A DNA stretch of 64,000 nt. Source: Candidatus Iainarchaeum sp. (GTDB taxonomy: Archaea; Iainarchaeota; Iainarchaeia; Iainarchaeales; VGJJ01). The notes under the pieces were generated by a model. The model was not told where the DNA came from. It searched no databases and saw only the letters and a list, made by a program, of their open reading frames with translations. The position numbers and the translations under genes were made by a program. This document shows positions 14,463-60,742 of the stretch, one piece after another. The DNA is taken from positions 267,035 to 331,034 of the forward strand of contig JAUYHT010000006.1 of the NCBI GenBank assembly GCA_030688545.1, in the 5' to 3' direction. Within the stretch, counting starts at the first letter, position 1, and every line of letters starts with the position of its first letter.

Positions 14463-14485
14463 GAAACTTTTTTCTAAAAAGTTTC
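14463..14485. repeat. AT palindrome family member (GAAACTTTTTT-ct-AAAAAGTTTC), 3' of MCO gene
   Basis: inverted repeat; family members listed in findings. Confidence 0.45.
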
Positions 14486-14515
14486 AATAAGATTTATTGC
14501 CAGCTCGGCGATTCA

Positions 14516-16012
14516 TCATTCAACATGGATATTCGTCATCATTCCAGATTCCAAGTGTTCTGCAGTATGACAATGAAGCATCCATTCGCCTGGATTTGAG
14601 AACTCCACCGCAATATCGATTGTGCTGCCCGATGGAATGAGCACGGTGTCTTTCCAGGAGGCATTTTCTACAGGTTTTCCATCAATGGTTAACACAACAA
14701 ATCGTTGTCCGTGTAAATGAATAGGGTGTTGCATGGGGTGCATACTGTCTTTCAAATTCTTTAGTCGAATGACCTTCCATGAATCCATTGAAGCGGTCTG
14801 CATAATGTCCATATTTTCATTTCCAGTCACGGGGTCACGGAGAATCCACGTGACATCCTCGCTGGAAGTGCCAGCGTTCATCATGAACATAGAATCTTCC
14901 CATTCCACTCCATCGCTGCTTGTCCCCCCATGCATCGTATGTCCACCCCCCATCATGGATTCCATAGACGGCCAATCAAGCGCAATGTCATATTCCCAAT
15001 CCGGTTCGATTCCCTTCAACATTTCAAGTTTCTCTATGGGGGGTAAATCAGCGGAATCTGGCACCCATTCCGGTATATCCGATAATGCAATGGATGATGA
15101 GCCTACTTCTATCGTTCCAAAAACTGCTTTTCCGATGGGCGTTTGATTCAGCACTTCATACACCCCGGGTTGTGAAAATTGAACCTCCACGATGGCACGT
15201 TCGGAGGGGGCTAAGATAACTGCATCTGTTTCAACTGGCTCGGGCAAAAAACCTCCATCCATTGCCCGCACATATAACGTTTGTTCATCAATGGCAAAGC
15301 GCATGGGACGTGCATTTGAGACATTTACGAGCAAGAACCGAACCCACTCGCCCGTTTGAGTTTGTACACGTGCATCCGATTGACCGTTTACCAAGAGCTG
15401 ATTCCCGTACCGTCCCATGAGTGCGAACAACGTTTTGTCTCCTGAAACTTGGATTTTATTTTTTGAAAGTTGTATATCATCCAACGCCCACGTAAATTCT
15501 TTCATGACTGGCAATGGATTTTGAGGTTCGACCCAGATGAGTCCATACATTCCCAAGTCCTGCTGCCGGTCCTCTCGGACATGAGGATGGTACCAATATA
15601 ATCCAGCGTCGGGAAAGATCAAATCATATTGATATGTCTTTCCCGATGCCACCTCCTTCTGAGTACTGCCCGGGACACCATCATCTTTGTTGGCCACGCG
15701 AATTCCGTGCCAGTGTACGGTAGTAGGTTCGGGCAATTGATTAACAAAATTTATTTTGGCGTGCGAACCCTGCTTGACTTTAAGGAAGGGACCTGGAATG
15801 CTTTCGTTATACGCGTATCCATTTTGTGAAATCCCTTCGAGCGTCCATCGCACGGGTGAGGCGGTTAATGTGAATGTTTCATTATCAGGTAAATTAATGA
15901 CGAGGGATTCTTTCGTAGTCGGCAGAACGCTTGCAAAGGGAGTATTGTTTTCTACACAACCGGCGAGCGATGCTATAACAACAACTCCAAGAAGGACGAG
16001 TGAAAGATTCAT
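14516..16012 (-). CDS. multicopper oxidase (laccase/CueO-like), secreted lipoprotein
   Basis: signal + LAGC lipobox; HWHGIRV, HPHV, HPIHLHGQRF, HCHTAEHLESGMM copper-ligand motifs. Confidence 0.85.
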   Translation of the reverse strand: MNLSLVLLGVVVIASLAGCVENNTPFASVLPTTKESLVINLPDNETFTLTASPVRWTLEGISQNGYAYNESIPGPFLKVKQGSHAKINFVNQLPEPTTVHWHGIRVANKDDGVPGSTQKEVASGKTYQYDLIFPDAGLYWYHPHVREDRQQDLGMYGLIWVEPQNPLPVMKEFTWALDDIQLSKNKIQVSGDKTLFALMGRYGNQLLVNGQSDARVQTQTGEWVRFLLVNVSNARPMRFAIDEQTLYVRAMDGGFLPEPVETDAVILAPSERAIVEVQFSQPGVYEVLNQTPIGKAVFGTIEVGSSSIALSDIPEWVPDSADLPPIEKLEMLKGIEPDWEYDIALDWPSMESMMGGGHTMHGGTSSDGVEWEDSMFMMNAGTSSEDVTWILRDPVTGNENMDIMQTASMDSWKVIRLKNLKDSMHPMQHPIHLHGQRFVVLTIDGKPVENASWKDTVLIPSGSTIDIAVEFSNPGEWMLHCHTAEHLESGMMTNIHVE

Positions 16013-16619
16013 GTGTAATGAATTATTAACAGTTCTTTAAATTAAGATGGTATTGGGATAAGCACTTATTTTTTGAAAAAATGACTTCAGAATAGAATAT
16101 GAATGAAAAAAAATAACCCAATGGGTGGAAATTGGAATTGTGAATATACCCCATAAAAAACAAGTGGCTTTCAGTTTGGGCGAAACTGCCGATAGTATTA
16201 TGCTATTTGGTCGCTCCCTCTTTTGATAGGCGCCGGAACTCGGCTATGAGTTGCAGCATCGCAAATGACGTAAGTTTTCAACCTAGACGATGTACCTCGG
16301 GGGAGGTCTTAACCGCCCAGTGCAACATGCTTACTGATTCAAACTCTTTGGATACTGGCTTAATGCATAGCGACTATTTATTCATTGGCTCGAAAAAGGA
16401 AATTGTCCTATTTGGAATAAACATGGCGATCCAAACCGTCCCACAGTGTAGACAGCCGTGGCGAACGCGCCCAATCAAAAGAAAACCAAGGGGTCGCGTT
16501 ACCACTCTGTATCGCAGCGGCCTGGCAAAGTGAACCAGTGTCTCAGAGGCGAATTTTTGTGGCAGTTTTGTGCTATGCCTTTTTTAGAATCTACAAACAT
16601 AACTGAAAATTGTTCTTAT

Positions 16620-17282: not shown

Positions 17283-17314
17283 GAATCCGAATAGATCACG
17301 AAATTATTAAATCA

Positions 17315-17388
17315 TGCCTCGGGGGAGACTTGAACTCCCGACCTCCGGGTTATGAATCCGGCGCTCTAGCCAACTGAGCTACCAAGGC
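17315..17388 (-). tRNA. tRNA-Met elongator (anticodon CAU)
   Basis: acceptor gccttgg/ccgaggc (G1-C72), anticodon loop ttCATaa, T arm gggag-ttcaagt-ctccc. Confidence 0.8.
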
Positions 17389-17424
17389 AGGGTTTCGCCC
17401 CTGCGCGACGAGGGACTACGTTAG

Positions 17425-17446
17425 CAGGATTGCAAGCAATCCTGCA
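17425..17446. promoter_or_regulatory. perfect 10-bp inverted repeat gcaggattgc-aa-gcaatcctgc upstream of tRNA-Met
   Basis: 22-nt palindrome ~40 bp 5' of the tRNA. Confidence 0.3.
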
Positions 17447-17546
17447 GTAGGCCTAACTCAATCATTTCGGTTTCACAAGGCTTAAAAATGGGCCGAGATG
17501 AGCGCGTTAAACGATACCCAATCCAGCAATCGCACCCTAAAACAGT

Positions 17547-18937: not shown

Positions 18938-19030
18938 GCGGGAGAATGAGATTAGGGGGATATAAGGATTAGGGAGAAAAAGGAAGGAAGCCCGGGAAAC
19001 TCCCGGGCGTTAATTTTAATGCCGATCCCG

Positions 19031-19126: not shown

Positions 19127-19173
19127 GGTGGTGTTCCCTCCTTTTTGGTGATTAATGGATTTGGAAAGGAGTA

Positions 19174-20209: not shown

Positions 20210-20265
20210 CGTTTTCCTAAAGAGCACGCGGGGGAATCCATTTAAAGTGGGTGGCGGAGCATAGG

Positions 20266-27301: not shown

Positions 27302-27414
27302 GATAATCCTATAAAAGTACTAAATAAAAACCAGCAGAGATAAAATTATGTAGTCATAATACTTTCTCTGCTTAAATCGTTTTTGAACAAACTATTTTAG
27401 AAAAAAAGTTTCTT

Positions 27415-29829
27415 TTAGTTAAACGCCCCCAGCCCGGTCTGTTTTCCTTGATTGCGCAAATCATGGGGGTCGTATCCCAGTTCCACGAGAATACGTTCGA
27501 TGGCGGGTACAACTTGGTGGAGAATGTAGTATTCGGCGTCGTAGTCCCCTTCTTTCACGAATTCCTCGAGTTCGGCTTTCTCTGAAATGGTTTTTCCTTT
27601 GGTAGTTATGATGAACCCCAGCATGGCCCCCACTCGGATGTCTTTCCCCCGCTTCATGGCCTTGAGCGCGGCGGAGACATGGGGGGTTGTTGTAGCGTAG
27701 GATGAGGGACGGCGCTGCATCTGGGTGTGTACTACTAAATCCTTATTGGGAATTTTCCCTTCGCGGAGACGGGAAATAGTCAGTTGGACGGCTCTCAGCG
27801 CGGCCTCGGGATTCCCATTCACGAGGACTTCCTGGAGCACGGTCTTCTGCGTCTCCCGCGCAACCTTGGACCAGTCGCGCCGCACATACTCGAATCCAAC
27901 GATCGTGAGTTGGTTGTCATAGTCCGCGAGGGCGTATCGTTTCTTGGCCGCGTGCCCCTCTTTCCTGGTGACAAAAAGCCCGCGCTTGTAGAGGCCTTCG
28001 AATTCCAGTTCCATAATGCCGGGCAGAGTTTTGTTTATTTTCTTCACGAGCGCGTGCATATCCTTTTCGTTTTTATCTGGTGGCAACAACAAAAATGCCG
28101 AATCTGTATCTGTGTAAATGGCAGTATATCCTTCTTTTTCAACATCCACAAGTGTCTTCTGAATATAGTGCCGCGCCCACGCAGTAATAGCCCGGGCGGA
28201 TTCGCGGGAGTACCAGCGGAAGCGTGGAAATCCGAGCGTCCCAAAGAAGGAGTTGAGCAGTATCTTCAACGCCTGCTTGCGTGCTTTCAGATTGGGCTGG
28301 CGCGGATCGTCTTTGGAAAGGGTATCCATTTCTTTCTGCACGGCGATGCGCTGGCGGAGGATATCATCCATCACTGAGGCGACCAATCCTTTTTCTTTGG
28401 TGCAGAACCAGTGCCCCGTGGGGGCGCGGTTGGGGCCTTTCTGGCACTCCTTATGCGCACAATCCAGTGTCTCGGGGGAAATGTTGTGCGAGATCATAAT
28501 ACTTGGATACAGGGAGCGGAAGTCCAACACCGCCACGTGCGAATGCAAGCCGGCCGTGGGTTCCTTCACGTAACCCCCTTCGATGGGATTCTGGGTGCGG
28601 GCATTCACCTGTTCGTCCGTGGGGGGACTAGGGATGGGAATGTTTCGTGTTACACATTCGGCGAAAAGCACGGCCTCCACCAATTGGGAGGCGGTGGCGC
28701 GGCACGTATCCGAGACTGACAATCGGACGATTCTGGATATCTCGAGCAGGAGGGGAAGGAATTCCAGGGCGAGACGCTGGGTGAAAATAGTGTCATTGAG
28801 GTTGTAGAGGGCCAATTTTTCTAATCCTTTTTTGGTTTGCCAGATTTCGCGGATCTGAACATGGGTCAGCGTTTTCTCCCCTTCCCCGAAAACGGCCTGC
28901 ATCACACTCCCCAAATCCAATTTCACGGTTTTGAGGGCCTGAAAACGATTCAAGAGGCGGGCGAGTTGCAACACATCCACGTGGGGCATCCCTTTTACCC
29001 GGGCTTCGTGCCCGCTGCCACGTCCCACGAGTTGGGGTTCACCAAATCCAAGGTCCAGGGACACCCCATGTTTCTGGGCGCGCGCCAGGAGAAAAGGAAA
29101 ATCAAACCCATCACCATTGTAGGTGGCAATAATATCCACATTCGCGAGACGAAGGAATGTGATGAATTGTTCGAGAAGATGTTTTTCATCCCGAACCAAA
29201 GTGGTTAGGTCATCCACATGCTGGGGCATGAACACTTTGTTTCCTTCAGGAGTGGTAATGGCAATGGAAATGATTTCATCCGCGTCAGAATTGGGCGAAG
29301 TCCCTAACCCACATGTTTCGATGTCGAAAGAAGCAACTCGCCAAGACGCGGGGGGTGAATCGAGGGAAGAAATTGAATGGATATCTCCTGTTTGGTTTAG
29401 CGTCAATTCAATTTTCTGATTGGGAATGAGTTTTTTATCCAGGAGATAACGCCGGGTGTAGGGGATGTTATACTCATGCATCTCCTTCACATGAGGATAG
29501 CGGAGAATCAGCTCCCTCACCCCTAATAGGTCGGGAATGCGGTGGAAATCCAAGCGGATAAATACCTGGTTGGCTCGGGTGACTTTTTGGACGTGAGCAA
29601 GGCGGATACCTCCAGGGAACGTCTCATTTTCAAGGCTGGAAATCATTTCGGGAATGGGGAACCGGGAATCACATGTTATGTAGAAGTAAGGGGGGAATGT
29701 TCTATCCAGGAACAATTTCACCCCTCCCGGGGTGCGGACATATACCTCCACGACGCTCTTTCCCTGGTCTTCGTGCATCTGCACATCTAACAGCCACCCC
29801 TCCCCTGTTTCCTTGCTGCGCGAGGCCAT
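27415..29829 (-). CDS. polB: DNA polymerase family B
   Basis: exo FDIET; pol motifs SLYPSIMISHNISPET, K..NS.FG, IYTDTDS. Confidence 0.9.
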   Translation of the reverse strand: MASRSKETGEGWLLDVQMHEDQGKSVVEVYVRTPGGVKLFLDRTFPPYFYITCDSRFPIPEMISSLENETFPGGIRLAHVQKVTRANQVFIRLDFHRIPDLLGVRELILRYPHVKEMHEYNIPYTRRYLLDKKLIPNQKIELTLNQTGDIHSISSLDSPPASWRVASFDIETCGLGTSPNSDADEIISIAITTPEGNKVFMPQHVDDLTTLVRDEKHLLEQFITFLRLANVDIIATYNGDGFDFPFLLARAQKHGVSLDLGFGEPQLVGRGSGHEARVKGMPHVDVLQLARLLNRFQALKTVKLDLGSVMQAVFGEGEKTLTHVQIREIWQTKKGLEKLALYNLNDTIFTQRLALEFLPLLLEISRIVRLSVSDTCRATASQLVEAVLFAECVTRNIPIPSPPTDEQVNARTQNPIEGGYVKEPTAGLHSHVAVLDFRSLYPSIMISHNISPETLDCAHKECQKGPNRAPTGHWFCTKEKGLVASVMDDILRQRIAVQKEMDTLSKDDPRQPNLKARKQALKILLNSFFGTLGFPRFRWYSRESARAITAWARHYIQKTLVDVEKEGYTAIYTDTDSAFLLLPPDKNEKDMHALVKKINKTLPGIMELEFEGLYKRGLFVTRKEGHAAKKRYALADYDNQLTIVGFEYVRRDWSKVARETQKTVLQEVLVNGNPEAALRAVQLTISRLREGKIPNKDLVVHTQMQRRPSSYATTTPHVSAALKAMKRGKDIRVGAMLGFIITTKGKTISEKAELEEFVKEGDYDAEYYILHQVVPAIERILVELGYDPHDLRNQGKQTGLGAFN

Positions 29830-29864: not shown

Positions 29865-30332
29865 ATGCCCGACCCCCTCCCAGCCGGTTACCCGGCGCCT
29901 CCCCGCCCCCAAGGAGGGACGGATTACCTCTACACCCTCAACCGGGACCTCAAAGCCCTCAACGCCTCCGTCCTGGTCATCACCCAGAAGATCAAGTACC
30001 TCGTCCGCAACGAGAAAATACTCGGAAGAAATCTCATCATCATCAACAAGCGGGTCAAGGAACTCTCCACCTCCCTCGCCCAGACGCAAGGGGAAGGGAT
30101 GTCCGATGAAACTAAACAACTCGTCTCTGACCTATCCCGCCAGGCGAGCGCCTTATCCTCCCAGCTCGTCCAACTGGAATCAAGGCTCGACACCCTCTCC
30201 CGCTCCGCCGCCAAGCAGGACGAGGTGAAAGAACTCAAATATATCATCGATGGGATGAACCCCTTGCATTACGTCACCCGCGAGCAAGTGGAAGAACTGA
30301 TTGATAAGCGGTTGGGCGAACGGAAAAAATAA
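29865..30332 (+). CDS. coiled-coil protein, unknown function
   Basis: heptad-rich helical sequence with Pro-rich N-terminus. Confidence 0.45.
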   Translation: MPDPLPAGYPAPPRPQGGTDYLYTLNRDLKALNASVLVITQKIKYLVRNEKILGRNLIIINKRVKELSTSLAQTQGEGMSDETKQLVSDLSRQASALSSQLVQLESRLDTLSRSAAKQDEVKELKYIIDGMNPLHYVTREQVEELIDKRLGERKK

Positions 30333-30335
30333 ATC

Positions 30336-30501
30336 CTTTTTCCTAAAAAGCGTTCGTTTTTTTGATCAAACTTCATCGTAAACACTATTTTCCGCCAACG
30401 CTTTTTCCAGCGGAAAAAGGGTTGTTACGATGCTCGCAAAACATAGTTTTGCTTGGTTTCCTAAAAAGTTTCTTTTGATGAAACTTTTTTTTAAAAAGTT
30501 C
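30336..30501. repeat. cluster of AT palindromes (CTTTTTCC-N-GGAAAAAG type) and TTTGATCAAA between convergent genes
   Basis: ctttttcctaaaaag (30336-50), tttgatcaaa (30361-70), ctttttccagcggaaaaag (30401-19), gaaactttttttttaaaaagttc (30477-501). Confidence 0.5.
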
Positions 30502-30502
30502 G

Positions 30503-32044
30503 TTATGAGAACAAGAAGTCTCCCACCACGCGCTGGGAGTAGGTGTCTCTCAGGGTGACGCGGTAGTTTTTGCGGCCCACCAAAGCCACTCCGGCCTGGC
30601 GTCCGCCGATGACGGAGATTTGGGCGTCGCAGAGGTTGCGGACATTCTGCGGGAGATCGATGCCGTGGGCTGAAGAGAGGATAAACCCCACGTCCTGGGT
30701 GTTGCTCTCGCTCAACAGCCGTTCCAGTTCCCGGTGCAAGGCGGGTTCCCGGCGGGGGTCGAATAGGGGCATGGCCTCTGGAATGACAATGAGGGATTTC
30801 ATTCTATCGGATACTCCTTTCCGGGTGTACCAGGAATAGATCCCCTTCATGATGGTGTACACCAGGAGGTTGCGCAGGCGCGGGGGGGTATGAGGCAGAC
30901 GCACAACTCCTATTCGTCCGATGGATTGGAACCAGCTCTTGGATATCTCCTCAATAGGATTGGTCCCGTCGAATAGTTTGGGGAATGTTTGGTCCAATAG
31001 GGTAAGGAGTCGTATGAGGCTGTTGATCTGGAAGGAGGAGAATGTGTCCGAGGGGGGGAGTTGTCTCAAAATGCGCACCCCTTCGTCAATGGAGGTCACG
31101 GAATGCTCGCGCAGAAATCGAGCGAGGTGCAATCCCAATTCATGATGCTCCAATCCCAGTATTTCCACCATGGCCTCAGGAGGAACAGTTGAGAGTTCGA
31201 TCTTCAAATTTTCGAAAGGCAGGAATTCCTTCAGGGGAAAACCAATGGGGTCCCCTTCAATCTTTTGCATGTGCAACGTGTCCGCGCTCGCGTTGGGATT
31301 GCGCATGACCGAGAATGTGTTGTTCCAGTCCATTATGACCACGGGGATGTTGGAGAATAAGGCCCCTTCCGCGATGACCTGAAGCACGTGTTCCCGGTGC
31401 TCTTTCCGCCCCCCTTCCACAAGGGTTTTCTTGAAGAAGAGAATGGGTTCCTTCACTAGCAATCCTGCTTGGGTCGTTCCCAATATGAATTCCCCGGGAA
31501 GCGCCCCGCTATGCGCTTGCGGCGTGCGAATAGTCTGATCCCCCTCGCGGGAATAGTGGGCACTCGTGGCGAGCATGGGAATGAGCATGGGCGCGCTGAA
31601 GAAGGCATTCCGCACCTTCTCATTGGTCTGGGCTAATGGGGTCATCTGGATGTCATAGGCCCGTGCCACTTCTTTCAGCAGGGAGTTCCCCACCTCTATT
31701 TTCTTGAGAAGTATATCCGTCTGCTCGAGCACGATGCCCTCCTCCCACGCCACCGACACGGGGTCGCTGCCCAATATGAGAAAGGTATGCGTCTCGTCCA
31801 CGCTGTGTTTAGTCCATACCAATAAGTCCCGTGGCAGGGTTTGAACAAACCCCCGGACATCTCCAGTGGCCTCGTACACCTGGTAGAATTCGCACGTGGC
31901 TTGGGTGAATGTTCCCCCTTCCGGGTGCAGGGTTTGGATGTAGATCCATTTTTCGGGGCTCGTGTACACCTCGAGTGACTGATCCTGGATATTCCCTTTC
32001 AGGAGCAGCGACCAGGGTCCTTGGGCGATCTTGAACAACGGCAT
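30503..32044 (-). CDS. large conserved hypothetical protein (513 aa), no recognisable catalytic motif
   Basis: long unambiguous ORF; no Walker A; one hhhhxPEA segment (LIVIPEAMPLF). Confidence 0.5.
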   Translation of the reverse strand: MPLFKIAQGPWSLLLKGNIQDQSLEVYTSPEKWIYIQTLHPEGGTFTQATCEFYQVYEATGDVRGFVQTLPRDLLVWTKHSVDETHTFLILGSDPVSVAWEEGIVLEQTDILLKKIEVGNSLLKEVARAYDIQMTPLAQTNEKVRNAFFSAPMLIPMLATSAHYSREGDQTIRTPQAHSGALPGEFILGTTQAGLLVKEPILFFKKTLVEGGRKEHREHVLQVIAEGALFSNIPVVIMDWNNTFSVMRNPNASADTLHMQKIEGDPIGFPLKEFLPFENLKIELSTVPPEAMVEILGLEHHELGLHLARFLREHSVTSIDEGVRILRQLPPSDTFSSFQINSLIRLLTLLDQTFPKLFDGTNPIEEISKSWFQSIGRIGVVRLPHTPPRLRNLLVYTIMKGIYSWYTRKGVSDRMKSLIVIPEAMPLFDPRREPALHRELERLLSESNTQDVGFILSSAHGIDLPQNVRNLCDAQISVIGGRQAGVALVGRKNYRVTLRDTYSQRVVGDFLFS

Positions 32045-32113
32045 GGGGATTCCAACGGAAGAGGTTTTTTATAGCAGGGTTGGTTCCTATTTAAAGCGCA
32101 CGCGAGGCTGGCC

Positions 32114-32719
32114 ATGGTCAATGACGAAATCATCCTCAACACCATTCGCAAGATGCAGGACGCGGGTCTCTCGGATAACATCATCCGTTCTACTCTTTCT
32201 GACCTGGGGTTGGGCAACGAGCAGGTCCAATCCTTCCTCTCCCGCGCGGGAATAAAAGACTCATCCCAAGGTCTTTCCTTTCCGGCCTCCCCCCCTCCTC
32301 CCTTATCTGAAAAACCCAATACGGCTTCCAGGGGAGAATCCAACCCTTCCTTGTCAGAAGCCGACCACGAGGCCATCGCTTCCCGCACGAGCGAAGTGTT
32401 GCAGCAGCAGATGGCCCATCGGGAACAGTCCATACAAAATGAGCATTCCCTGCGTGACAGCATCACCCATTTGGCACTGGAACAGCACGGCGAACAATTG
32501 AAGGACACCCACTCCGCGGTGGTCGAGCTCCATGACCGGCTGGACGGGATGAATATCGATACCCTTTCTTCCCGCCTCGCTGGATTAGGCACGCGCACGG
32601 ATGTCATCGCCAATGACGTATCCGAAATTAAATCCCGCATGGGGGCTTTGAATGCCCTGATGCAGAAAGTCCTTGAGACGGAACAGAAACTCTTGTTCGG
32701 GAGCAAGGACAAGAAATAG
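32114..32719 (+). CDS. coiled-coil protein with small N-terminal helical domain
   Basis: N-terminus IILNTIRKMQDAGLSDNIIRSTLSDLGL, Pro/Ser linker, then coiled coil; resembles 29865-30332 in style. Confidence 0.45.
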   Translation: MVNDEIILNTIRKMQDAGLSDNIIRSTLSDLGLGNEQVQSFLSRAGIKDSSQGLSFPASPPPPLSEKPNTASRGESNPSLSEADHEAIASRTSEVLQQQMAHREQSIQNEHSLRDSITHLALEQHGEQLKDTHSAVVELHDRLDGMNIDTLSSRLAGLGTRTDVIANDVSEIKSRMGALNALMQKVLETEQKLLFGSKDKK

Positions 32720-32810
32720 CCTTTAGTCATTTGCCCCCGATGTTCTTTTCGACAGAATATTTTTCTAAACCGTTTTCTTGTAAATTTTTTCTAGGTCGTT
32801 TTTGATCGCC

Positions 32811-32917
32811 CTTTTTTCTAAAAGGAGGGTTTTTGATCAAACTTTTTCCCAAAAAGTTTGATGAGGAAGCTTTTTTCTGAGTCGATTTTTTGATAAAACT
32901 TTTTCCTAAAAAGTTTT
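32811..32917. repeat. AT palindrome cluster (TCAAACTTTTT-ccc-AAAAAGTTTGA and relatives) between convergent genes
   Basis: perfect 11-bp arms at 32837-32861; second copy 32895-32917. Confidence 0.5.
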
Positions 32918-32927
32918 TAAAAAAGTT

Positions 32928-33332
32928 TCATTTGAAGAGCTTGTGTAGCCCGTCCCAGAATTGTTCCGCCATGGTGGCGAGGGCGTGCATGGGTTGGGGG
33001 ATGTTCCATTGGTAATTGTATGCGTCCTTATAGGATTTGGCTCCTTTGGGGAGGATGGTTTCTTGGGTCTTCTCCGAGAGGGCTTTTCCTATGTTTTCGA
33101 ATGTCCCTTTGGGATGGCTTCCTTTCGCCGCTTCCATGGCGTGGTATTCCTCCTCGTATATTTTTTTGGCCTTTTCAATCCCTTTTTTGGCCCCTCGGGT
33201 AATCGTCCGAGTGGAATAGAAAACCATGTACACGAGAAATAGCAGGCCGCCTGCGATTAGCCAGAATAGGTTTCCCGTCGCCGCGAGCGCCACGAGAATG
33301 ACTAATAGCAGAATCCATCCTCCCTCACTCAT
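32928..33332 (-). CDS. small membrane protein (2 TM + amphipathic tail)
   Basis: hydropathy. Confidence 0.4.
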   Translation of the reverse strand: MSEGGWILLLVILVALAATGNLFWLIAGGLLFLVYMVFYSTRTITRGAKKGIEKAKKIYEEEYHAMEAAKGSHPKGTFENIGKALSEKTQETILPKGAKSYKDAYNYQWNIPQPMHALATMAEQFWDGLHKLFK

Positions 33333-34005: not shown

Positions 34006-34746
34006 TTATCCGGAGGCGGCCTCGTCGTAGCGGGAAAAACGTCCTCTCCCTCGTCCCCCATTCCCACCCATGCGGGGTCGGCGTTTGCGCGCACCATCGT
34101 CATCCCCTTCCCGCACCGGGTGTTCGAACTCTTCGGGCGTCCTGGTAAAGGATTCTTCATCCGCGATCTTTCCCGTTCCGATTAAATAGCCCCGGGCCAG
34201 GAGCCAATAGATGAGGGCCAGGGATTTGCGCCCTTTATTGTTCACGGGAAGAACCACATCGATGTTTCTGAGTTCATTGTTCGTTGATGCTAATGCCACT
34301 ACAGCTGCCCGGGCGAGGGAGGCTTCTTGGATGGCTTGCACATCGGACTCTGGTTCGGTGATGATGACCACTTTGGGTTGTAAAAATTCCTTCCCTTCGG
34401 GATTGGTAAATGTTCCGGGCACGAATCGTCCGGTGAGCGCGCGGCATCCGATGGTCGCGGCGAATTCTTCAACCGGTGTTTTCCCATACATCTTTCGGCT
34501 GACCACAATAATTTCATGCGGGGCATACCGGGAGAGGAATTGTCCCACGTGCTTGACGCGTTGGTCAATCATCTGGATATCCAGCACTTTTAGCCCGTCC
34601 CGACGCTGTTTGTAGATGTACTTTCCCATATCCCCTGATTTGAATCGGGCGCCGATGTGGGCACCGGAAGTAAGGTATTTCTCCATGAGGGGATTAGTCC
34701 CGACGGGGGTGTTCTGGATATCATCTTGTTTGTCAGTCATCGGCAA
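34006..34746 (-). CDS. rps2: 30S ribosomal protein S2 (uS2)
   Basis: archaeal uS2 core; Gly/Arg-rich C-terminal tail. Confidence 0.85.
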   Translation of the reverse strand: MPMTDKQDDIQNTPVGTNPLMEKYLTSGAHIGARFKSGDMGKYIYKQRRDGLKVLDIQMIDQRVKHVGQFLSRYAPHEIIVVSRKMYGKTPVEEFAATIGCRALTGRFVPGTFTNPEGKEFLQPKVVIITEPESDVQAIQEASLARAAVVALASTNNELRNIDVVLPVNNKGRKSLALIYWLLARGYLIGTGKIADEESFTRTPEEFEHPVREGDDDGARKRRPRMGGNGGRGRGRFSRYDEAASG

Positions 34747-36365: not shown

Positions 36366-36449
36366 TGCACGGGGGAGGATTCGAACCTCCGAAGGCACTA
36401 AGCCACCAGATCTTAAGTCTGGCCCCTTTGACCGCTCGGGAACCCGTGC
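36366..36449 (-). tRNA. tRNA-Leu (anticodon UAA), long variable arm
   Basis: acceptor gcacggg/cccgtgc, anticodon arm ccaga-ctTAAga-tctgg, variable stem ggc/gcc, T arm ggagg-ttcgaat-cctcc. Confidence 0.8.
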
Positions 36450-36451
36450 CA

Positions 36452-36545
36452 CAAACTTTTTGGGAAAAAGTTTGATCAAAAACCTTTCCTCTTGAAAAAA
36501 GTTTGATCAAAAAACCCTTTCCTTTTGGAAAAAGGCTTAATCAAA
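36452..36545. repeat. three tandem AT palindrome/TTTGATCAAA elements between tRNA-Leu and rpoD
   Basis: CAAACTTTTT-ggg-AAAAAGTTTG-atcaaaaa, then two degenerate copies. Confidence 0.5.
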
Positions 36546-36693
36546 CAAACTTTTCATTGTGGAATAATCCCGAAGAATTGGCTATCCCCCCGTTTTCTTT
36601 TTGGGAAATCTGGGGGGTCAAAACCGCTTCCATCTAGGAAAATGGCTCCGAATCGGTTAAAAGGCGCTAGGGGCAGTGGGTGCCTCTGGCTGG

Positions 36694-37467
36694 TCACAAT
36701 CCATCTTTCACCCGGTCGGCGAAGTCTTTTGCTTTGCTTTCCATAATCGAAATGGCCTCTTCTACGAGCTGCCTGGTTGAGAGGGCCCCGGTTCCTTCCA
36801 TCGTCATGACGAACCCGCTTTCATCTGGGTCGACTTGGATGATTCCCGCGCCACCCACTTCCTCGCAATGCCCGCAGAGGGTGCAGTCGCTCGGTTCCGT
36901 GATGCTGATCTTCTTTCCTTTCATTTCAATGATGTTCACGGGACAGCTCTTCACCAGCTTTTCTCCCATTTCGGGGGAAATATTCTCATTAATCGTGAAT
37001 AGGGGTAACATGCGGTAGCCCACGATGGCGGGTTGGTATTTGACATGATCCTTCCCCACCCCCACGACGCATTCCCCTTCCAGCCGAATGTGTTGATCGG
37101 CTTTGAGCTTAGCCAGGGGAATCTTTTTGTCCAGGACTTGGATTCCCTCATCCAGGATCTTGATGTCCCCGCTGTACACCGTGCAGGGTCCTTCTGCTTC
37201 AAGGGTCATTTTCACTTTGTCTCCCAGTTTGTAGGATTTGGGATCCATGGAAATAGGAACCAGTCCCAATCGGTGTCCTATGAATTCGTCGAATAACACC
37301 CCATTGTTTTCATAGATACTCAGTTCCTCAATGGCGAGCGTAGGTACTTCAGACATGATGATGCGGCGCAAGGCGTTCATCGTCGCCAGATTTGTCCCTT
37401 TGACCAGGAGTTGGGTTCGGCTCCCTTTCTCCGACAAAACTTTTATCACGTTTCTCGCCATGTTCAT
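36694..37467 (-). CDS. rpoD: DNA-directed RNA polymerase subunit D (Rpo3)
   Basis: alpha-like dimerisation domains; CPVNI...CTLCGHCEE ferredoxin-like Cys cluster. Confidence 0.85.
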   Translation of the reverse strand: MNMARNVIKVLSEKGSRTQLLVKGTNLATMNALRRIIMSEVPTLAIEELSIYENNGVLFDEFIGHRLGLVPISMDPKSYKLGDKVKMTLEAEGPCTVYSGDIKILDEGIQVLDKKIPLAKLKADQHIRLEGECVVGVGKDHVKYQPAIVGYRMLPLFTINENISPEMGEKLVKSCPVNIIEMKGKKISITEPSDCTLCGHCEEVGGAGIIQVDPDESGFVMTMEGTGALSTRQLVEEAISIMESKAKDFADRVKDGL

Positions 37468-55210: not shown

Positions 55211-55281
55211 CCCGGCTATTTCATTATTTTTTCCCGAGTCCCCCAAAAGGGACAATGGAATGATCCACACGAAACCCGCGT

Positions 55282-57504: not shown

Positions 57505-57541
57505 CTTTAAATATCATTACTTTAACCCGTGAATCAGTTAC

Positions 57542-57566
57542 TCGAACTTTTTAGGAAAAAGTTCGA
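57542..57566. repeat. AT palindrome family member TCGAACTTTTT-agg-AAAAAGTTCGA
   Basis: perfect 11-bp arms. Confidence 0.5.
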
Positions 57567-57648
57567 TCAAAAAACGACTATTTTAAAGAAAAAATCAATC
57601 CAAAAACGACTATTTCTAAGAAAAAAAGGTCAATCAAAAACGACCAGC
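57567..57648. repeat. ~30-bp direct repeat x3 (tcaaNNaaaaacgactatttYtaaRgaaaaaa)
   Basis: three tandem copies, the last truncated at the stop of the 57648 gene. Confidence 0.45.
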
Positions 57649-59552
57649 TATGGGCCGTGCTCTTCCTCAATCATTTTCTTCAATCGACGTAATATTTCTT
57701 TTTTGGGGTCGTCGACTGGTTCCTCCGGCACGGCTTGGGCCACTTGTTTTTCCTGTCGAGTGAGGGTTTGATTCAGGGCATCTATTGAAGCCTGCTCCTT
57801 CTCCTCCTGCTCGTGTTCCTTCTCTTTCTGTTCAAGATATGCCCAGTCCGCGGGGGTGAGATTTTCCTGATCCTCTTCGTCCGCTTGGGAAGGGATTTGG
57901 GTTTCCTTTGGTTGAAGAGGAGAGAGTGGAGATTTGGTTTCGGGAGGCGCGGAAGAAATGGGTCGTGGTTCGTCATCCATTCCTTTGGGGGCCAGGGGAG
58001 GTATCGCCACTTCTCCGGATTCCTTATTCGGGCGCGCGGGAGGAGGGGTAATTTCGGGGGTGTTTAACCTTTCTCGGGGGACCGACCAGGGAGGAACATA
58101 GGGGCGGGGGCCACGCGGGGCTGATTCGAGAGGAGTATGAGACGGATCTCGAAGCCCCTTGGGTTGAATTGGGAATTTTTCTTGGGAGCTATCCATTTCG
58201 GATTTGTATGGCAATGGAGCTGTTTCCGGGACAGGAGGATTGGGGGCTATCGTGGGCGCCTCTTCTTGGCGTTGGGCATCGATGTGTTGCAAATAGGATG
58301 TTGGTTTTGCTTGACCTGTTTCCATGTTGGGTGTCACTGTTTGAGGGACTGGCGAATTCCCTTCGTTTCGCGTGGATGGGGTGTTTTCCACCCTCCTCCC
58401 CGATGGGGGAAACGTTTCCTGCGTCGGAAGGTGTGCCTCTTTCAAAGGGGGTGGGGCCATGGGGTCCGTCCTTTTTTCAGGGGAAACCGATATTTTTTCT
58501 TCACGGGGACGCGGTATTTCGACTTGGAGGGAGGGGATGTCAGCGTACTTTTTTCCCTCTTCTTGCATTTCATAGGGAGTGGGATTCCCCTGCGGGGCGA
58601 TGATGGGTTCCGCCGATCCGAATCCTTCCCACTTGGACGTATTATTGGTCGTCGTCCCCCGCGCATCCTTTTTCCAAGGTGGAGCAAAAGATGGGGGTGC
58701 GGCGTCTTTCCCAGGAAGTGAACGAATATCCTTGGATGGGGTAACCACCTGGTTGGTTGATGGTGGTTTCAAATGTGGAGACGCCGGGGCTGAGGGTGGG
58801 GGAAAGGGTGATGTAAAAGAAGGAGGGGTCGTGGGGGTGGGGGTGGGAATCCCAACCCTCGTCGGTTGCAACACGATATCTTTTTCGGTGCTCGGAGGCA
58901 TCGGTGCACGTTCGGGGATGATCGGCACAGAGGATGAGGGAGTAGAAGAAAGGGGGAAATCCTTTTTTTGTCCAGGAAGGATGGCTCGGGTTGGGCTGAC
59001 GGTTCCTCGTGGGGCCATTTCCTGTTTGGGTCGCATGAAGGGGAGCATTTGGGCGAATGTGAATGGTTTTTTGGGTGGCGTGTTTAATGGCTTTGGATTC
59101 GATGCGATGGCGCGTTGGAGGGGGGTGGGCGGCTGTGCAGGTATAGTCGGCAATGGAGAAGCAGGGAGGAGAGATGGTCCCTGCGTCCGAATGGGAGAAT
59201 AGAGTGGCGCATTTCCCGGTGATAAATTTTTTTGGGTCGATGAGAGACGGGGGGAAATGGACATGTTCTTGTTGGCGAATGGGCGCGCAGGAGTTATCGT
59301 TCCATGGGCACTCCCCTGCATCATGGTGGCTAACTGCTGGCGCATTTGACCTTGGGCGTTGGAGCTGGCGCGCGTGGGTTGGGAGGTAATCAAGGGTTGT
59401 CGTCTGGGTTTTGGTTTTCCGAATATCGCTTGGGCAACGCGCTGTCCCAATCCGGGTTGCGGTAATTTGGGAACGAGTTCTCCGTGGGAAATCTTTTCCC
59501 GACGTTGCTTGAGGAATTCGTCGATCTCATCCACATCCTCTGAAACGGGCAT
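57648..59552 (-). CDS. 634-aa proline/serine/threonine-rich intrinsically disordered protein with acidic coiled-coil C-terminus
   Basis: long ORF; polyproline motifs (PPPLKEA, FPPPSAPASP); C-terminus EEDQENLTPADWAYLEQKEKEHEQEEKEQ; no signal peptide or TM. Confidence 0.45.
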   Translation of the reverse strand: MPVSEDVDEIDEFLKQRREKISHGELVPKLPQPGLGQRVAQAIFGKPKPRRQPLITSQPTRASSNAQGQMRQQLATMMQGSAHGTITPARPFANKNMSISPRLSSTQKNLSPGNAPLYSPIRTQGPSLLPASPLPTIPAQPPTPLQRAIASNPKPLNTPPKKPFTFAQMLPFMRPKQEMAPRGTVSPTRAILPGQKKDFPLSSTPSSSVPIIPERAPMPPSTEKDIVLQPTRVGIPTPTPTTPPSFTSPFPPPSAPASPHLKPPSTNQVVTPSKDIRSLPGKDAAPPSFAPPWKKDARGTTTNNTSKWEGFGSAEPIIAPQGNPTPYEMQEEGKKYADIPSLQVEIPRPREEKISVSPEKRTDPMAPPPLKEAHLPTQETFPPSGRRVENTPSTRNEGNSPVPQTVTPNMETGQAKPTSYLQHIDAQRQEEAPTIAPNPPVPETAPLPYKSEMDSSQEKFPIQPKGLRDPSHTPLESAPRGPRPYVPPWSVPRERLNTPEITPPPARPNKESGEVAIPPLAPKGMDDEPRPISSAPPETKSPLSPLQPKETQIPSQADEEDQENLTPADWAYLEQKEKEHEQEEKEQASIDALNQTLTRQEKQVAQAVPEEPVDDPKKEILRRLKKMIEEEHGP

Positions 59553-59760
59553 AGCTACCCAGACTTTTCCGACTATAAAAAAGAACGCTCATGCGCCAAC
59601 CAAAAATCCCCAGCGGGATCCCCACGACTCCCAATGCAATCTCGGTAGGATCGGGTTCAGCCGCATTCATGAACGGAGGAGCTGTCGATCAAAAGAATTT
59701 CTCTTGCGGGAAAAATCAGTCTATTAAAAAAGGGCACCGCCTATTGGAGTAAGTGGTCTC

Positions 59761-60258
59761 ATGCGCCAAAAATTCATCGACTGGTTTTTTTATGATCCCT
59801 TGTTCAAAAAGTTGAACGTGCGGACCGTATTAGATGTGGGATCGGAAAATGGTAAGATGATTAAATATTTCTCCAGACGGGGAGCTAAAGTCACGGCGAT
59901 CGACCTGGAGCCCACGCGACCCGAAATCAAAAAGATGGACTTTTTGAATAATGTTTTCGCGGACGGACAGTTTGATTTGGTGTACAGTGCGCACACCATT
60001 GAACACATTCCCACCCCGGAAAAATTTTCTTTGGAAATGCTGCGTGTATCAAAACAATACGTGTGTCTTGTAGCTCCCTTACCGGGCAAGCAATTCTGGG
60101 ATCAGCCCGATCATATTCGACCGTACACAAAAGAAACATTAAAACGCATTTTTCACTTGAATAAGTGGATCATCTGCAAAGAAATACGTTTTCCCGGGTT
60201 TGAGCCCATCGCTCTCGTGTTGTTTGACAAGAAGGATTCACGCCTCGTTCGAAATTGA
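59761..60258 (+). CDS. class I SAM-dependent methyltransferase (Methyltransf_11-like)
   Basis: VLDVGSENGKM motif I, FDLVYSAHTIEHI. Confidence 0.65.
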   Translation: MRQKFIDWFFYDPLFKKLNVRTVLDVGSENGKMIKYFSRRGAKVTAIDLEPTRPEIKKMDFLNNVFADGQFDLVYSAHTIEHIPTPEKFSLEMLRVSKQYVCLVAPLPGKQFWDQPDHIRPYTKETLKRIFHLNKWIICKEIRFPGFEPIALVLFDKKDSRLVRN

Positions 60259-60742
60259 AGCGAATCATTGCTTCATAATCTTTCGCAAGGATCTGAAAGT
60301 ATACCCATTTTCCACGCTTCCTGAAACGACACGCTTCTTAGGAATCGCGGATACGTATGGTGCGATATACCCGCGGAACACCGCCTCCAATTTTGCATTT
60401 ATGGGATTTCGGCGTTTTTCCCTTCATGGTTCGACATTCGCGTTCCACAATTTTGATAGCTGGTTCAACGCGGGTTTTTGTGCACACAGGAAGCTCTGGT
60501 GCTATTGATACTGTTTGAATGTCGCCGCATACTGAGCCAGCATGCGATTAGGTTTTATAGGAGCGAGTTCATGCGGGTAGAAAAGAAGGAACAATTTCCT
60601 GTCCCCAAAAAGTCCTCTCCCAACCTCTTTCTTTTCTCCGAATGCGGGTGCGCGCATTTTTGATCGAACTTCCGGGTAAAACCAAAAAGGTTTTGCGGGC
60701 CTCGCAGAACAACGTTCTGCAAGGTTTTTCAAAAAGTTCGTT

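Follow-up and report, generated by a model that had tools for sequence, protein, structure and literature searches.

Several described systems resemble the repeat reported here. Bacterial bidirectional intrinsic terminators consist of a hairpin between an A-tract and a U-tract and lie between convergent genes. The REP/BIME elements of Proteobacteria, which are linked to RAYT transposases, are dispersed palindromes of 20-40 nt at gene 3' ends; they are clustered, occur in both orientations, carry a short, conserved, one-sided flank beside the hairpin (GTAG in REP elements), and have lineage-specific copy numbers and species-specific sequences. Formation of mRNA 3' ends in Mimivirus reportedly follows a 'hairpin rule', with palindromes unique to each gene. 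A T-rich stop signal, TTTTTYT, is said to operate in Sulfolobus, and poxvirus early genes use the stop signal TTTTTNT; each of the two spans 7 nt and lacks both a hairpin and a second conserved block. Archaeal terminators are U-tracts for which a GC-rich hairpin is not obligatory, and two U4-tracts within about 23 nt give the top termination efficacy and the best aCPSF1 binding (PMC8716108).

The element analysed here is a T-rich hairpin sequence of about 31 bases that recurs in a 64 kb stretch (the window) of the genome of Candidatus Iainarchaeum sp., a small DPANN archaeon. Like the archaeal U-tract terminators mapped by Term-seq in Methanococcus, Methanosarcina, Sulfolobus and Haloferax (intrinsic or assisted by FttA/aCPSF1), it places oligo-T just past stop codons, presents two U-tracts within about 20 nt in its strong direction and forms arrays of consecutive signals. 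Those terminators have neither conserved sequence beyond the U-runs nor a conserved hairpin, whereas the element, defined on both strands, has a fixed length of 31 nt, a stem that covaries, and invariant GAT and AAAC/GTTT. As in bacterial bidirectional terminators, one palindrome would serve both strands and convergent spacers are enriched, but the inner stem is built from the T and A runs themselves, which in the bacterial case lie outside a GC-rich stem; the stem is weak (-3 to -9 kcal/mol, with one or two G:C pairs) and the host polymerase is archaeal-type.

The element shares with REP/BIME its dispersal at gene 3' ends, clustering, both orientations, one-sided flank and lineage-specific copy number. 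However, no RAYT-like gene was seen (including HUH/Y1 genes in the annotated parts of the window), and the element sequence is constant across phyla and giant viruses. In giant-virus and polinton-like contigs it is an AT-rich palindrome at or next to the stop codon, in either orientation, as under the Mimivirus rule, but with a single sequence serving at hundreds of places; these element-bearing contigs show no enrichment of AAAATTGA, the canonical early-promoter motif of Mimivirus. The second T-run and loop on the TTTTTGAT strand usually read TTTTT(T)CT, TTTTTCTT or T7-8, fitting both TTTTTYT and TTTTTNT, but the CCT loop (about 13% of viral copies and a comparable archaeal share) does not fit. 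Searches of the literature by sequence strings and by topic found no description of the motif, and the element is apparently undescribed.

Element structure

The element consists of TTTTTGAT followed by N-AAAC-TTTTT / yyy / AAAAA-GTTT-N', the latter forming a 10-bp hairpin. A first-pass annotation of the window had described a plain inverted repeat. The element is instead oriented, with TTTTTGAT on one side of the hairpin and never on both. The loop of all intact copies is 3 nt and pyrimidine-rich on the TTTTTGAT strand, which narrows the 2-3 nt gap given earlier. TTTGATCAAA, previously called self-complementary, joins the flank to the first bases of the stem and has that property only in copies where N is C. 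The presence of T5 or longer runs on both strands was correctly noted.

Among 102 copies, the outer pair N:N' covaries (CG 39, AU 25, GC 17, UA 12), and G:U was found in 0/93. TTTTTGAT and AAAC/GTTT are invariant in archaeal phyla and giant viruses alike, so the earlier view that conservation exceeds what a terminator needs holds. The free positions vary among the copies of the source genome (N is G, C, A or CG, with four different loops). The BRE position upstream of the element is not conserved. Orientation, the covarying stem, copies at promoter or leader positions and the distribution beyond the source genome are features absent from the first-pass annotation.

Copies in the window

We built a covariance model from the 102 copies and searched the window with it without filters. 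The search recovered the repeat family at all seven sites previously proposed, with six intact and about eight decayed copies (Table 1), all outside genes; no copy was found inside a gene. Exact matches to AAACTTTTT-N2-3-AAAAAGTTT number 4, compared with 0 in 100 shuffles, and AACTTTTT occurs 25 times where 4.0 +/- 2.0 are expected, clustered at the same sites. Weaker model matches are confined to the sites of the strong copies and to 27375-27418 and 60652-60701, which correspond to the copy earlier called weak and to the last of the sites then reported.

Table 1. Copies of the element in the window, with covariance-model scores, strong model matches (43-57 bits) and neighbouring features.
Site	Feature	Position	Strand	Sequence and scores	Strong match	Context
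A	Intact copy	14455..14485	+	TTTTTGAT-G-AAAC-TTTTT(T)-CT-AAAAA-GTTT-C; 54.5 bits; dG -8.6, z -2.8	14450-14491(+)	29 nt past stop of multicopper oxidase gene 14516-16012(-), hairpin end toward that stop; GC-rich hairpins at 14400-14450 immediately upstream of T5
G	Decayed copy	27380..27413	+	TTTTTGAACAAACTATTTTAGAAAAAAAGTTTC; 19.6 bits, E 0.055		Hairpin end 1-2 nt from TAA stop of family-B DNA polymerase 27415-29829(-); T7 at +8 on the polymerase gene strand
B	Core-only hairpin	30336..30350	.	CTTTTTCCTAAAAAG		Begins 4 nt past stop of 29865-30332(+)
B	Split/decayed copy	30357..30472	+	Arms TTTTTTTGATCAAACTT (30357-30373) and TTTCCTAAAAAGTTTC (30457-30472); 14.7 bits		About 83 nt between arms, containing more T5/A5 hairpins (30396-30424)
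B	Near-intact copy	30473..30502	+	43.1 bits; outer two stem pairs mismatched	30467-30508(+)	Hairpin end adjoins TAA stop (30503-30505) of convergent gene 30503-32044(-)
C	Decayed copy	32798..32829	+	TTTTTGATCGCCCTTTTTTCTAAAAGGAGGG; 10.5 bits		GC-ended hairpin followed at once by T5 of next copy (hairpin-then-U-run geometry)
C	Intact copy C1	32830..32860	+	TTTTTGAT-C-AAAC-TTTTT-CCC-AAAAA-GTTT-G; 53.7 bits; dG -8.1, z -3.4	32825-32866(+)
C	Intact copy C2 (32886-32917) plus extra right half-arm	32886..32929	+	Half-arm AAAAAAGTTTC; 54.9 bits	32882-32923(+)	TGA stop (32928-32930) of convergent gene 32928-33332(-) overlaps end of half-arm; on that gene's strand T6 at +4 and T5 at +16
D	Intact copy	36452..36482	-	56.6 bits	36446-36487(-)	2 nt upstream of tRNA-Leu(TAA) 36366-36449(-); about 210 nt past rpoD stop
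D	Two decayed tandem copies	36483..36547	-	TTTTTTGATCAAACTTTTTTCAAGAGGAAAGG, GTTTGATTAAGCCTTTTTCCAAAAGGAAAGGG; 17.8 bits; period ~31 nt		Downstream of rpoD 36694-37467(-)
E	Intact copy	57543..57574	-	TTTTTTGAT-CG-AAC-TTTTT-CCT-AAAAA-GTT-CG; 51.2 bits; dG -7.8, z -3.3	57537-57578(-)	74 nt past a stop, 60 nt before ATG (57483) of 733-aa gene; canonical TATA-like ATATTTAAAG between copy and this ATG
E	Two decayed copies	57575..57641	-	12.9 bits		Start 8 nt past stop of 57648-59552(-); with the intact copy, six T5-T7 runs for polymerase from that gene
F	Split copy	60657..60740	+	Arms TTTTTGATCGAACTT (60657-60671) and TTTTTCAAAAAGTTCG (60725-60740); 10.3 bits		53 nt with two inner hairpins between arms; right arm ends 2 nt before TAA stop (60743-60745) of convergent gene 60743-61678(-)

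Tandem arrays in the window comprise 2-3 decaying units with a period of ~31 or 57 nt, in which the decayed copies follow on the TTTTTGAT side of the intact ones; they lack the unique spacers that separate the identical repeats of a CRISPR array, and a CRISPR reading was rejected. ORF 31999-32730(-) proved spurious, the real gene being 32114-32719(+) (43-51% identical to orthologues), and sites B, C and F thus lie between convergent genes. The statement that every copy follows a stop codon applies to five of the seven sites (A, B, C, F and G, with the nearest T5 4-36 nt past the stop) and fails for the intact copies at D and E. Site D is the copy rightly reported between tRNA-Leu and rpoD.

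Searched against Rfam at gathering and permissive thresholds, only the tRNAs of the window reach threshold, with weak hits over the sites (E ~1-4). BLAST of site C against plasmid and phage collections gave no match, probably owing to the low-complexity filter. Sm-sites, box C/D (K-turn), replication-origin boxes (ORB) and dif were set aside on inspection of the consensus against their known features, and a published archaeal rolling-circle Rep family is unrelated to the element.

Distribution in other genomes

Archaeal loci with the motif number >90; their labels comprise about 15 taxon names and range from DPANN to Methanosarcina and ANME-1. Giant-virus and polinton-like contigs carry the motif as well, and it was essentially absent from bacteria. 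A sequencing or assembly artefact can be dismissed because the motif keeps register with tRNA structure and is also found in genomes of isolates, namely Methanosarcina spelaei MC-15 and strain MSH10X1. One assembly contig begins and ends within copies. In Methanosarcina, arrays repeat a whole 83-nt unit, and within one family of related viral genomes, homologous spacers contain a copy in either orientation or none.

From four relatives (61-69% RpoD identity) we retrieved 76 kb in total, of which about 10 kb per relative corresponds to the window segment that holds sites G, B, C and D. None of the 76 kb contains a copy, compared with the four sites of that 10 kb segment. Convergent gene pairs separated by 170-208 nt in the window have spacers of 3-24 nt in the relatives. 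The arrays are therefore dispensable.

Placement relative to genes

In the window, the hairpin end faces the nearest gene boundary. At five sites this boundary is a stop codon, at a distance of 1-36 nt; at the other two it is the tRNA-Leu 5' end at 2 nt and a gene start at 60 nt. On the non-template strand, T5-T7 lies at +4 to +8 past the stop for both genes of site B and at sites C, E, F and G; site A has it at +36. Five to six U-tracts follow rpoD (site D) and 57648-59552 (site E). Among the genes listed, about half of those with T5 or longer within 70 nt past the stop owe the run to element sites. Within window genes, T5 is tolerated on the sense strand, whose runs of T6 or longer are ~3-fold rarer than those of the antisense strand.

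The motif recurs beyond the window in about 290 copies, only 6 of which are inside ORFs. These copies are enriched in convergent intergenic regions (0.21 per region in archaeal and 0.36 in viral loci), intermediate in tandem ones (0.12 and 0.18) and least dense in divergent ones (0.06 and 0.08). The hairpin end is next to stop codons more often than to start codons, by 62:30 in archaeal loci and by 95:61 in viral ones. Overlap between stem and stop codon is frequent (50/95 viral cases at -4..+5 nt, 11/62 archaeal cases at -3..+2 nt). By inspection, about one in four archaeal copies has a GC-rich hairpin that ends 0-3 nt before T5; with dG <= -6 as a strict cut-off, such hairpins precede 18% of copies and 7% of shuffles. 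Two hairpin/T5 junctions in the window were flagged as terminator-like.

Eight copies lie in tRNA introns, all in the orientation with a single U5, and four lie 0-3 nt from tRNA 5' ends. Reading the intron copies as split-tRNA signals or internal promoters was rejected on reasoning, since the 3' exon is too close and the orientation is wrong. The source sequence was extended by 1.7 kb. A further copy lies 12 nt before the EF-1alpha ATG, just outside the window, with only the Shine-Dalgarno sequence in between. Copies also directly precede the Shine-Dalgarno sequence of a putative Eha/Ehb-type subunit gene and of one other gene. At site D, TTTTTGAT occupies -33..-26 of tRNA-Leu, the position of the TATA-like TTCTTAAA in the four relatives. 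Genes downstream of forward-oriented copies are functionally unrelated, and do not suggest a regulon.

Proposed transcription termination and alternative readings

Our best reading, for which we see about equal chances of being right or wrong, is an asymmetric two-way oligo-T terminator that presents two U-tracts in one direction and a single one in the opposite direction. From position and published rules, we infer termination at these sites. The bidirectional terminator proposed in the first-pass annotation accords with the context (T5 on both strands, adjacency to stop codons, three of seven window sites between convergent genes, and higher convergent than divergent density elsewhere), and termination itself is predicted from it. 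The element differs from a bacterial-type intrinsic terminator, in which a stable GC-rich hairpin precedes a U-run, because its stem is weak and its U-tracts are inside or before the stem. No U-run follows the hairpin in single copies; this arrangement occurs only at copy junctions or past a separate upstream GC hairpin.

In the proposed mechanism, the elements would be compact, oriented end signals of transcription units and members of a dispersed hairpin family. The T5 and A5 stem halves would provide an oligo-T signal on both strands from one short sequence. A polymerase arriving from the TTTTTGAT side would encounter two U-tracts 8 nt apart, a U5 and then a U5-U8 (the second reaching this length because the loop is pyrimidine-rich), the first often closely preceded by a GC-rich mini-hairpin or the previous copy. 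From the hairpin side, it would meet a single U5, 4-8 nt past the stop codon. The strong direction, aimed at the adjacent gene, may shield it against incoming, antisense or read-through transcription, and the weaker direction may terminate the adjacent gene's own transcript. The predicted asymmetry is supported by the single-U5 orientation of 8/8 tRNA-intron copies and by the tolerance of sense T5 but rarity of sense T6 or longer in window genes. The flank TTTTTGAT resembles a TATA box, so that a gene with a copy ~30 nt ahead of it could also take its promoter from the element, and the element likely supplies the promoters of tRNA-Leu in the window and of EF-1alpha just outside it. Copies would arise by local tandem duplication followed by decay, with rapid gain and loss between lineages.

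Several observations fit a terminator badly: GAT and AAAC/GTTT are invariant, which termination does not require; copies occur where transcription must pass or start (tRNA introns, tRNA 5' ends, before Shine-Dalgarno sequences); the same positions lack the element in four relatives; and the orientation and presence of copies vary among homologous spacers of related viral genomes. Because of these relatives, the tRNA-intron copies and the copies flush upstream of tRNAs and EF-1alpha, REP-like self-spreading and a role at the RNA level have to be weighed.

The dispersed imperfect palindrome with a short conserved flank, clustered at gene 3' ends, has the form of REP/RAYT repeats. It could be a self-propagating repeat of the REP/BIME kind without required host function, copied by a host or element enzyme that recognises the hairpin and its 5' flank, and persisting where harmless (gene 3' ends and introns). 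We regard this as unlikely. It would accommodate the lineage-specific gain relative to the four relatives, the decaying arrays and split copies, the tRNA-intron copies, the orientation flips and empty sites among related viral genomes, and the contig bounded by copies; a stem of Watson-Crick pairs with no G:U is as expected for a DNA hairpin, and the one-sided flank beside a hairpin is REP-like. However, none of the copies had a visible transposase or RAYT-like gene nearby, REP sequences differ by species whereas the element is constant across phyla and viruses, the differing free positions within the source genome speak against a recent burst, and the single-nucleotide registration to stop codons and tRNA ends looks selected. 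Direct repeats of >=8 nt flank 16% of copies and 3% of controls, but they reflect tandem-array context or local duplications of 15-18 nt and vary in length. The proposed check for target-site duplications thus yielded none of fixed length. Nor is the earlier suggestion of a MITE-like repeat supported: the element is one hairpin with a one-sided flank, without terminal inverted repeats beyond the hairpin, and no transposase-encoding autonomous relative was seen in the window or in the sampled loci, whose copies have housekeeping genes as neighbours. A two-gene unit between inverted copies in Methanosarcina encodes ATP-grasp and hydantoinase-type enzymes and no transposase, and was rejected as a mobile cassette.

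Rather improbable, in our view, is an RNA-level module that protects or processes ends, in which the hairpin would be kept on the gene's RNA 5' or 3' end after an endonuclease cut in the flank (UUUUUGAU, or AUCAAAAA on the other strand). The hairpin end always points toward the functional RNA and the flank away (stop codons, tRNA 5' and 3' ends, the intron 5' splice site), some copies are transcribed, given their location in introns and just before Shine-Dalgarno sequences, and aCPSF1 binds U-tracts and cleaves nearby (PMC8716108). Against such a module, G:U is missing from all 93 covarying outer pairs, the hairpin is weak, no Rfam family matches, and convergent enrichment is explained no better than by termination.

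We attach little probability to a DNA-level site for a conserved protein (a nucleoid protein, a topoisomerase or a DNA-acting termination factor), or to a cruciform relieving supercoils at the ends of transcription units. Sequence invariance past structural need, Watson-Crick-only symmetry, tolerance within transcribed introns, and hosts that share archaeal/eukaryotic-type DNA machinery, with absence from bacteria, would suit such a site, but a dimer on a palindrome needs no N:N' complementarity at the free position, the conserved flank is single-sided, decaying arrays are unusual for binding sites and no candidate protein was identified.

It is very improbable that the element is primarily a promoter, with TTTTTGAT-N-AAA as TATA box and a start near the hairpin 3' end, as suggested by the spacing at tRNA-Leu, an equivalent spacing ahead of three other tRNAs (N' there being taken as nucleotide G1 of the tRNA), the EF-1alpha copy, and TTTTTAAT, one base different and read as the TATA box, upstream of tRNA-Glu in the source genome. 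Against a promoter, density is lowest in divergent spacers, a stop codon is what two thirds of the hairpin ends face, a canonical TATA box separates the element from the ATG of several downstream genes, and the upstream BRE position is not conserved.

Implications

We propose tentatively, and with clear reservation, that TTTTTGAT-N-AAACTTTTT-yyy-AAAAAGTTT-N' is an undescribed sequence-specific cis-element of most archaeal phyla, giant viruses and polinton-like satellites, either a stop/insulator signal or a hairpin repeat that spreads across domains. As a stop/insulator signal, it might be read by a conserved archaeal-type transcription component, inherited or borrowed across domains; FttA/aCPSF1, through its KH domains, and the polymerase itself are candidate readers. 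Alternatively, it might be a tiny hairpin repeat whose spread across domains includes tRNA introns.

To our knowledge, archaeal termination signals are thought to be bare U-runs without conserved sequence or structure. A fixed 31-nt gene-end module would be a handle on how archaeal-type polymerases and FttA recognise stop sites, on the insulation of neighbouring genes in compact genomes and on the spread of such signals; the copies in tRNA introns raise the separate question of how archaeal tRNA introns are gained. In practical terms, short-read assemblies break at the motif, which also shows where transcription units end in archaeal MAGs that lack annotation and exposes giant-virus contigs mis-binned into bacterial MAGs.

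Element anatomy

Read on both strands, the sites give an oriented consensus, TTTTTGAT, N-AAAC-TTTTT, a 3-nt loop and AAAAA-GTTT-N' (as RNA, UUUUUGAU followed by the hairpin). The first-pass annotation described a simple palindrome; the inverted repeat stands, with an orientation added by the flank. The flank always lies on one side of the hairpin and in no copy on both. On the flank strand (the strand reading TTTTTGAT) the loop is rich in pyrimidines, and thus the second T-run is extended to T5-T8 on that strand only. The 102 distinct copies, drawn from the window and other genomes, all have the same eight inner stem pairs, an invariance partly imposed by the search pattern. The two outer pairs, which the pattern left unconstrained, covary, with a score reached by none of 500 shuffles. 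The outermost pair is C:G in 39 copies, A:U in 25, G:C in 17 and U:A in 12, unpaired in 9 and never G:U. It does not covary in viral copies, so the viral stem is 9 bp. Five T's precede GAT in essentially every archaeal match listed, and the genome-scan pattern had left this T5 free. The RNA hairpins of the copies are modest (-3 to -9 kcal/mol, z of about -2 to -3.5).

Two window copies look split (30357-30472 and 60657-60740), with arms 53-83 nt apart and small hairpins between them. Their intact arms are TTTTTGAT-N-AAACTT on the left and TTT-yy-AAAAAGTT.. on the right, and the breakpoint, directly after AACTT, is identical in both.

By inspection, about a quarter of archaeal copies have a GC-rich mini-hairpin whose end lies 0-3 nt ahead of the first T-tract; under a strict cut-off the figure is 18%, against 7% in shuffles. 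The preceding hairpins have a C-GAA-G type loop (e.g., GTACCATCGAAGATGGTAC, GTTTGCGAAGCAAAC). The arrangement of GC hairpin, element and downstream CAACGGACGAAACCGTTG hairpin is conserved in five DPANN-type MAGs (two labelled Methanosarcinales), and at L044 it lies upstream of an exosome rrp4-like gene.

Copies in the window

The window is DNA of a DPANN archaeon whose RpoD matches a protein of a 'Candidatus Diapherotrites archaeon' MAG at 100% identity, and an archaeal ribosomal-protein, SecY and RpoD cluster is present. The motif noticed in the first pass is real: a strict pattern matches four times in the window and not at all in 100 shuffles, and AACTTTTT has 25 window matches versus 4 expected, grouped at the sites first noticed. 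A covariance model trained on the 102 copies and run over the window identified six strong copies (43-57 bits), with weaker element-like matches (10-20 bits) confined to the same seven sites and no copy inside a gene. Other low matches (8-12 bits, E 1.8-8.7) are short partial T/A-core matches.

Gene calls in the window were mended by orthology, and the start of a 733-aa gene is at 57483. The gene at 32114-32719(+) is real (201 aa, with orthologues in relatives at 43-51% identity), which makes the context of site C convergent, not tandem. A longer minus-strand ORF, 31999-32730(-), was rejected as spurious, since the orthologues belong to the plus-strand gene.

At every window site the hairpin end points to the closest gene boundary, and any decayed copies follow on the TTTTTGAT side. 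Of the genes in our list with a T5+ run within 70 nt past the stop, about half owe that run to element sites. Just beyond the window there is a further copy, 12 nt ahead of the EF-1alpha ATG. Both ends of a 29-kb short-read contig whose sequence is identical to the window fall inside copies, indicating that the repeat breaks de Bruijn assemblies.

A different bidirectional terminator-like spacer separates convergent genes at 2849-2921 (a GGGGGA...TCCCCC hairpin with T6 and T9 runs), so the genome also employs ordinary GC hairpin and oligo-T signals. At 34043-34107(-), inside the ribosomal protein S2 gene, a weak hit to sR53, an archaeal family of box C/D sRNAs, is probably due to chance (25 bits, E 0.013, under the gathering score).

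Locations of element copies and associated features (coordinates without a locus name are those of the window; L-numbers are retrieved loci, L124-L243 being IMG/VR contigs)
Feature	Location	Context	Hairpin end to gene boundary
Site A	14455-14485	tandem gene pair, directly past upstream gene's stop	29 nt to stop codon
Site B	30336-30502	between convergent genes	1-2 nt to stop codon
Site C	32798-32929	between convergent genes	stop codon overlapped by extra half-arm
Site D	36452-36547	between rpoD and tRNA-Leu	2 nt to tRNA-Leu 5' end
Site E	57543-57641	between two tandem genes	60 nt to gene start
Site F	60657-60740	between convergent genes	1-2 nt to stop codon
Site G	27380-27413	tandem gene pair, directly past upstream gene's stop	1-2 nt to stop codon
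Contig end	L001 end, window 36455	site D copy	
Contig start	L251 start, ~1.7 kb past window's right end	EF-1alpha copy	
tRNA intron copies	L006:4380-4510; L031:83-254; L046:354-463; L059:3449-3573; L062:6391-6503; L101:5767-5889; L116:816-977; L119:4129-4255	intron	
Copies at tRNA ends	36366-36482; L041:2548-2657; L056:3346-3485; L069:173-282; L007:636-790	tRNA 5' or 3' end	
GC-rich hairpin ahead of element	14420-14454; L023; L033; L044; L045; L051; L060; L061; L081; L085; L105; L114		
Head-to-tail arrays	L021:3921-4276; L029:4275-4524; L097:7815-7898; L204; L222; L232		
(GCTTTACCAAA)GATAAAACTTTTTTCTAAAAAGTTTTAGTGTTRATC variant	L005; L016; L043; L058; L066; L102; L118; L122		

Placement in other genomes

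For the first pass, copies equally common inside coding regions would have spoken against a terminator, and absence of the motif elsewhere in the genome against a repeat family. About 290 copies are listed outside the window, in other genomes, and only six of them lie in ORFs. Across these copies, convergent spacers hold 0.21 copies per spacer at archaeal loci and 0.36 at viral loci, tandem spacers 0.12 and 0.18, and divergent spacers 0.06 and 0.08; the two orientations relative to the upstream gene are about equally frequent. The neighbour at the hairpin end is a stop codon about twice as often as a start codon among the copies listed. The stop frequently overlaps the stem (-4 to +5 nt in 50 of 95 viral cases listed, and -3 to +2 nt in 11 of 62 archaeal cases), and start codons at the hairpin end are 33-66 nt off.

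Among the matches listed are eight intron-containing tRNAs, most of them from Micrarchaeota-type MAGs, with the element inside the intron. These copies begin 1-2 nt past the 5' splice site, and all eight are oriented hairpin then AUCAAAAA, which suggests either an intron family that is shared or transposed, or a repeat inserted into introns. Three tRNAs among the matches listed have a copy 2-7 nt past the 3' end, also reading hairpin then AUCAAAAA, and four (the window's included) have one 0-3 nt before the 5' end, in the opposite orientation to the intron copies. The listed 5'-flush copies occur only at class II tRNAs (Leu or Ser), and in three the outermost stem base N' is the tRNA G1. The order at L007 is tRNA-Leu, a copy, and then 17 nt that duplicate the 3' end of the tRNA. 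Immediately ahead of the Shine-Dalgarno sequence, copies are present at EF-1alpha, at a putative Eha/Ehb-type subunit gene and at one other gene.

Distribution in archaea, bacteria and viruses

The prokaryote scan (one genome per species, pattern without the T5 flank) returned at least 120 rows. At least 93 of the loci among the matches listed have archaeal labels: Methanosarcina isolates, ANME-1/Methanophagales, Syntrophoarchaeum, Methanovirga, Micrarchaeota, Diapherotrites, Woese-, Pace-, Nano-, Nanohalo-, Aenigm-, Alti-, Undin- and Marsarchaeota, and one MAG labelled Thaumarchaeota. Bacterial rows number 27 among the matches listed, of which about 20 are a coding match in Flavobacteriia and related MAGs. 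This match, GAGATGGAACTTTTTGAAAAAAAGTT (L009, L013, L019, L024, L039 and other Flavobacteriia loci), is a conserved stretch of one flavobacterial gene and unrelated to the element. The T5 flank is present in only three of the listed bacterial rows. One of these carries a gene with a DUF5832 domain, which we take to be a giant-virus family, and thus looks like a mis-binned giant-virus contig.

The IMG/VR scan yielded at least 192 copies on very AT-rich contigs. Many of these are giant-virus MAGs (XRN, class I ribonucleotide reductase, PolB, asparagine synthase); a second group of at least 20 contigs, which we take to be polinton-like, shares an A32-type ATPase as well as a conserved block of three genes. 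Viral examples include L135, L151, L156, L158, L161 and L176. In the 988 kb of viral contigs L124-L243, AAACTTTTT occurs 933 times versus 92 expected, and the Mimivirus early-promoter motif AAAATTGA shows no enrichment (283 versus 259 expected). Each gene on these contigs also has a separate conserved ATAAAATAAAATTCTTTAAAA-like box ahead of it.

Head-to-tail arrays with up to six exact units and periods of 31-115 nt occur in Methanosarcina isolates and on some viral contigs; the Methanosarcina unit also includes a TTTAGATAAA box and, as a second T/A hairpin, CAAGCCTTTTTTGAAAAGGCTTG. A variant, (GCTTTACCAAA)GATAAAACTTTTTTCTAAAAAGTTTTAGTGTTRATC, is common to ANME-1 and Syntrophoarchaeum MAGs, with conserved flanks and T5 missing in some, and may represent a single orthologous locus or a gene for a small RNA.

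Turnover and relatives

Four relatives (61-69% RpoD identity, window gene order shared) were compared over 76 kb, with about 10 kb per relative homologous to the stretch holding sites G, B, C and D. Neither a copy nor a T5-N3-A5 core was identified in these 76 kb. Orthologous convergent pairs in the relatives are 3-24 nt apart, versus 170 and 208 nt of element arrays in the window. Their tRNA-Leu has a TATA-like TTCTTAAA at -33 to -26, the exact position of the window's TTTTTGAT. Homologous spacers in a viral family hold a copy that is forward, reversed, head-to-head, decayed or missing. Target-site duplications, a check proposed in the first pass, were not found at any fixed length around the copies, and the few long flanking repeats are local duplications. 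The neighbours of copies are ordinary housekeeping genes.

Interpretation

Position, the strand symmetry of the T-runs and the spacer-class bias point to a signal for transcription-unit ends. The terminator proposed in the first pass fits the context, and the intron copies argue against a pure terminator. Archaeal terminators are U-tracts, and in Methanococcus termination is most effective, and aCPSF1 binds best, with two U4-tracts no more than about 23 nt apart (PMC8716108). The same double U-tract layout is present on the element's flank strand, whereas the other strand has a single U5. T5 is tolerated on the sense strand of window genes, and T6+ runs are about 3-fold rarer there than on the antisense strand (the gene list used is imperfect), which fits a weak and a strong direction, as does the uniform orientation of the intron copies. 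We favour an asymmetric two-way terminator, a reading to which we give about an even chance.

Terminator function does not account for the invariance of GAT and AAAC/GTTT, for copies in introns, for gain that is rapid and lineage-specific, or for an element that is identical in archaea and giant viruses; nor does a pure terminator explain the copies at tRNA ends and before Shine-Dalgarno sequences. The rapid gain would be accounted for by a REP-like self-spreading repeat, a possible explanation that we consider clearly less probable. An RNA end-processing module is doubtful, and a DNA-binding site slightly more so. A primary role as promoter is very unlikely because the element is depleted in divergent spacers.

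The motif was not described, by sequence or topic, in the literature searched, and matches no Rfam family. It is familiar in kind from oligo-T terminators, bidirectional terminator hairpins, REP-like repeats and the Mimivirus hairpin rule; its fixed sequence, orientation rules and cross-domain spread appear undescribed. If the element is an asymmetric two-way terminator, its strong side would shield the adjacent gene, and its TATA-like flank may have been co-opted as a promoter.
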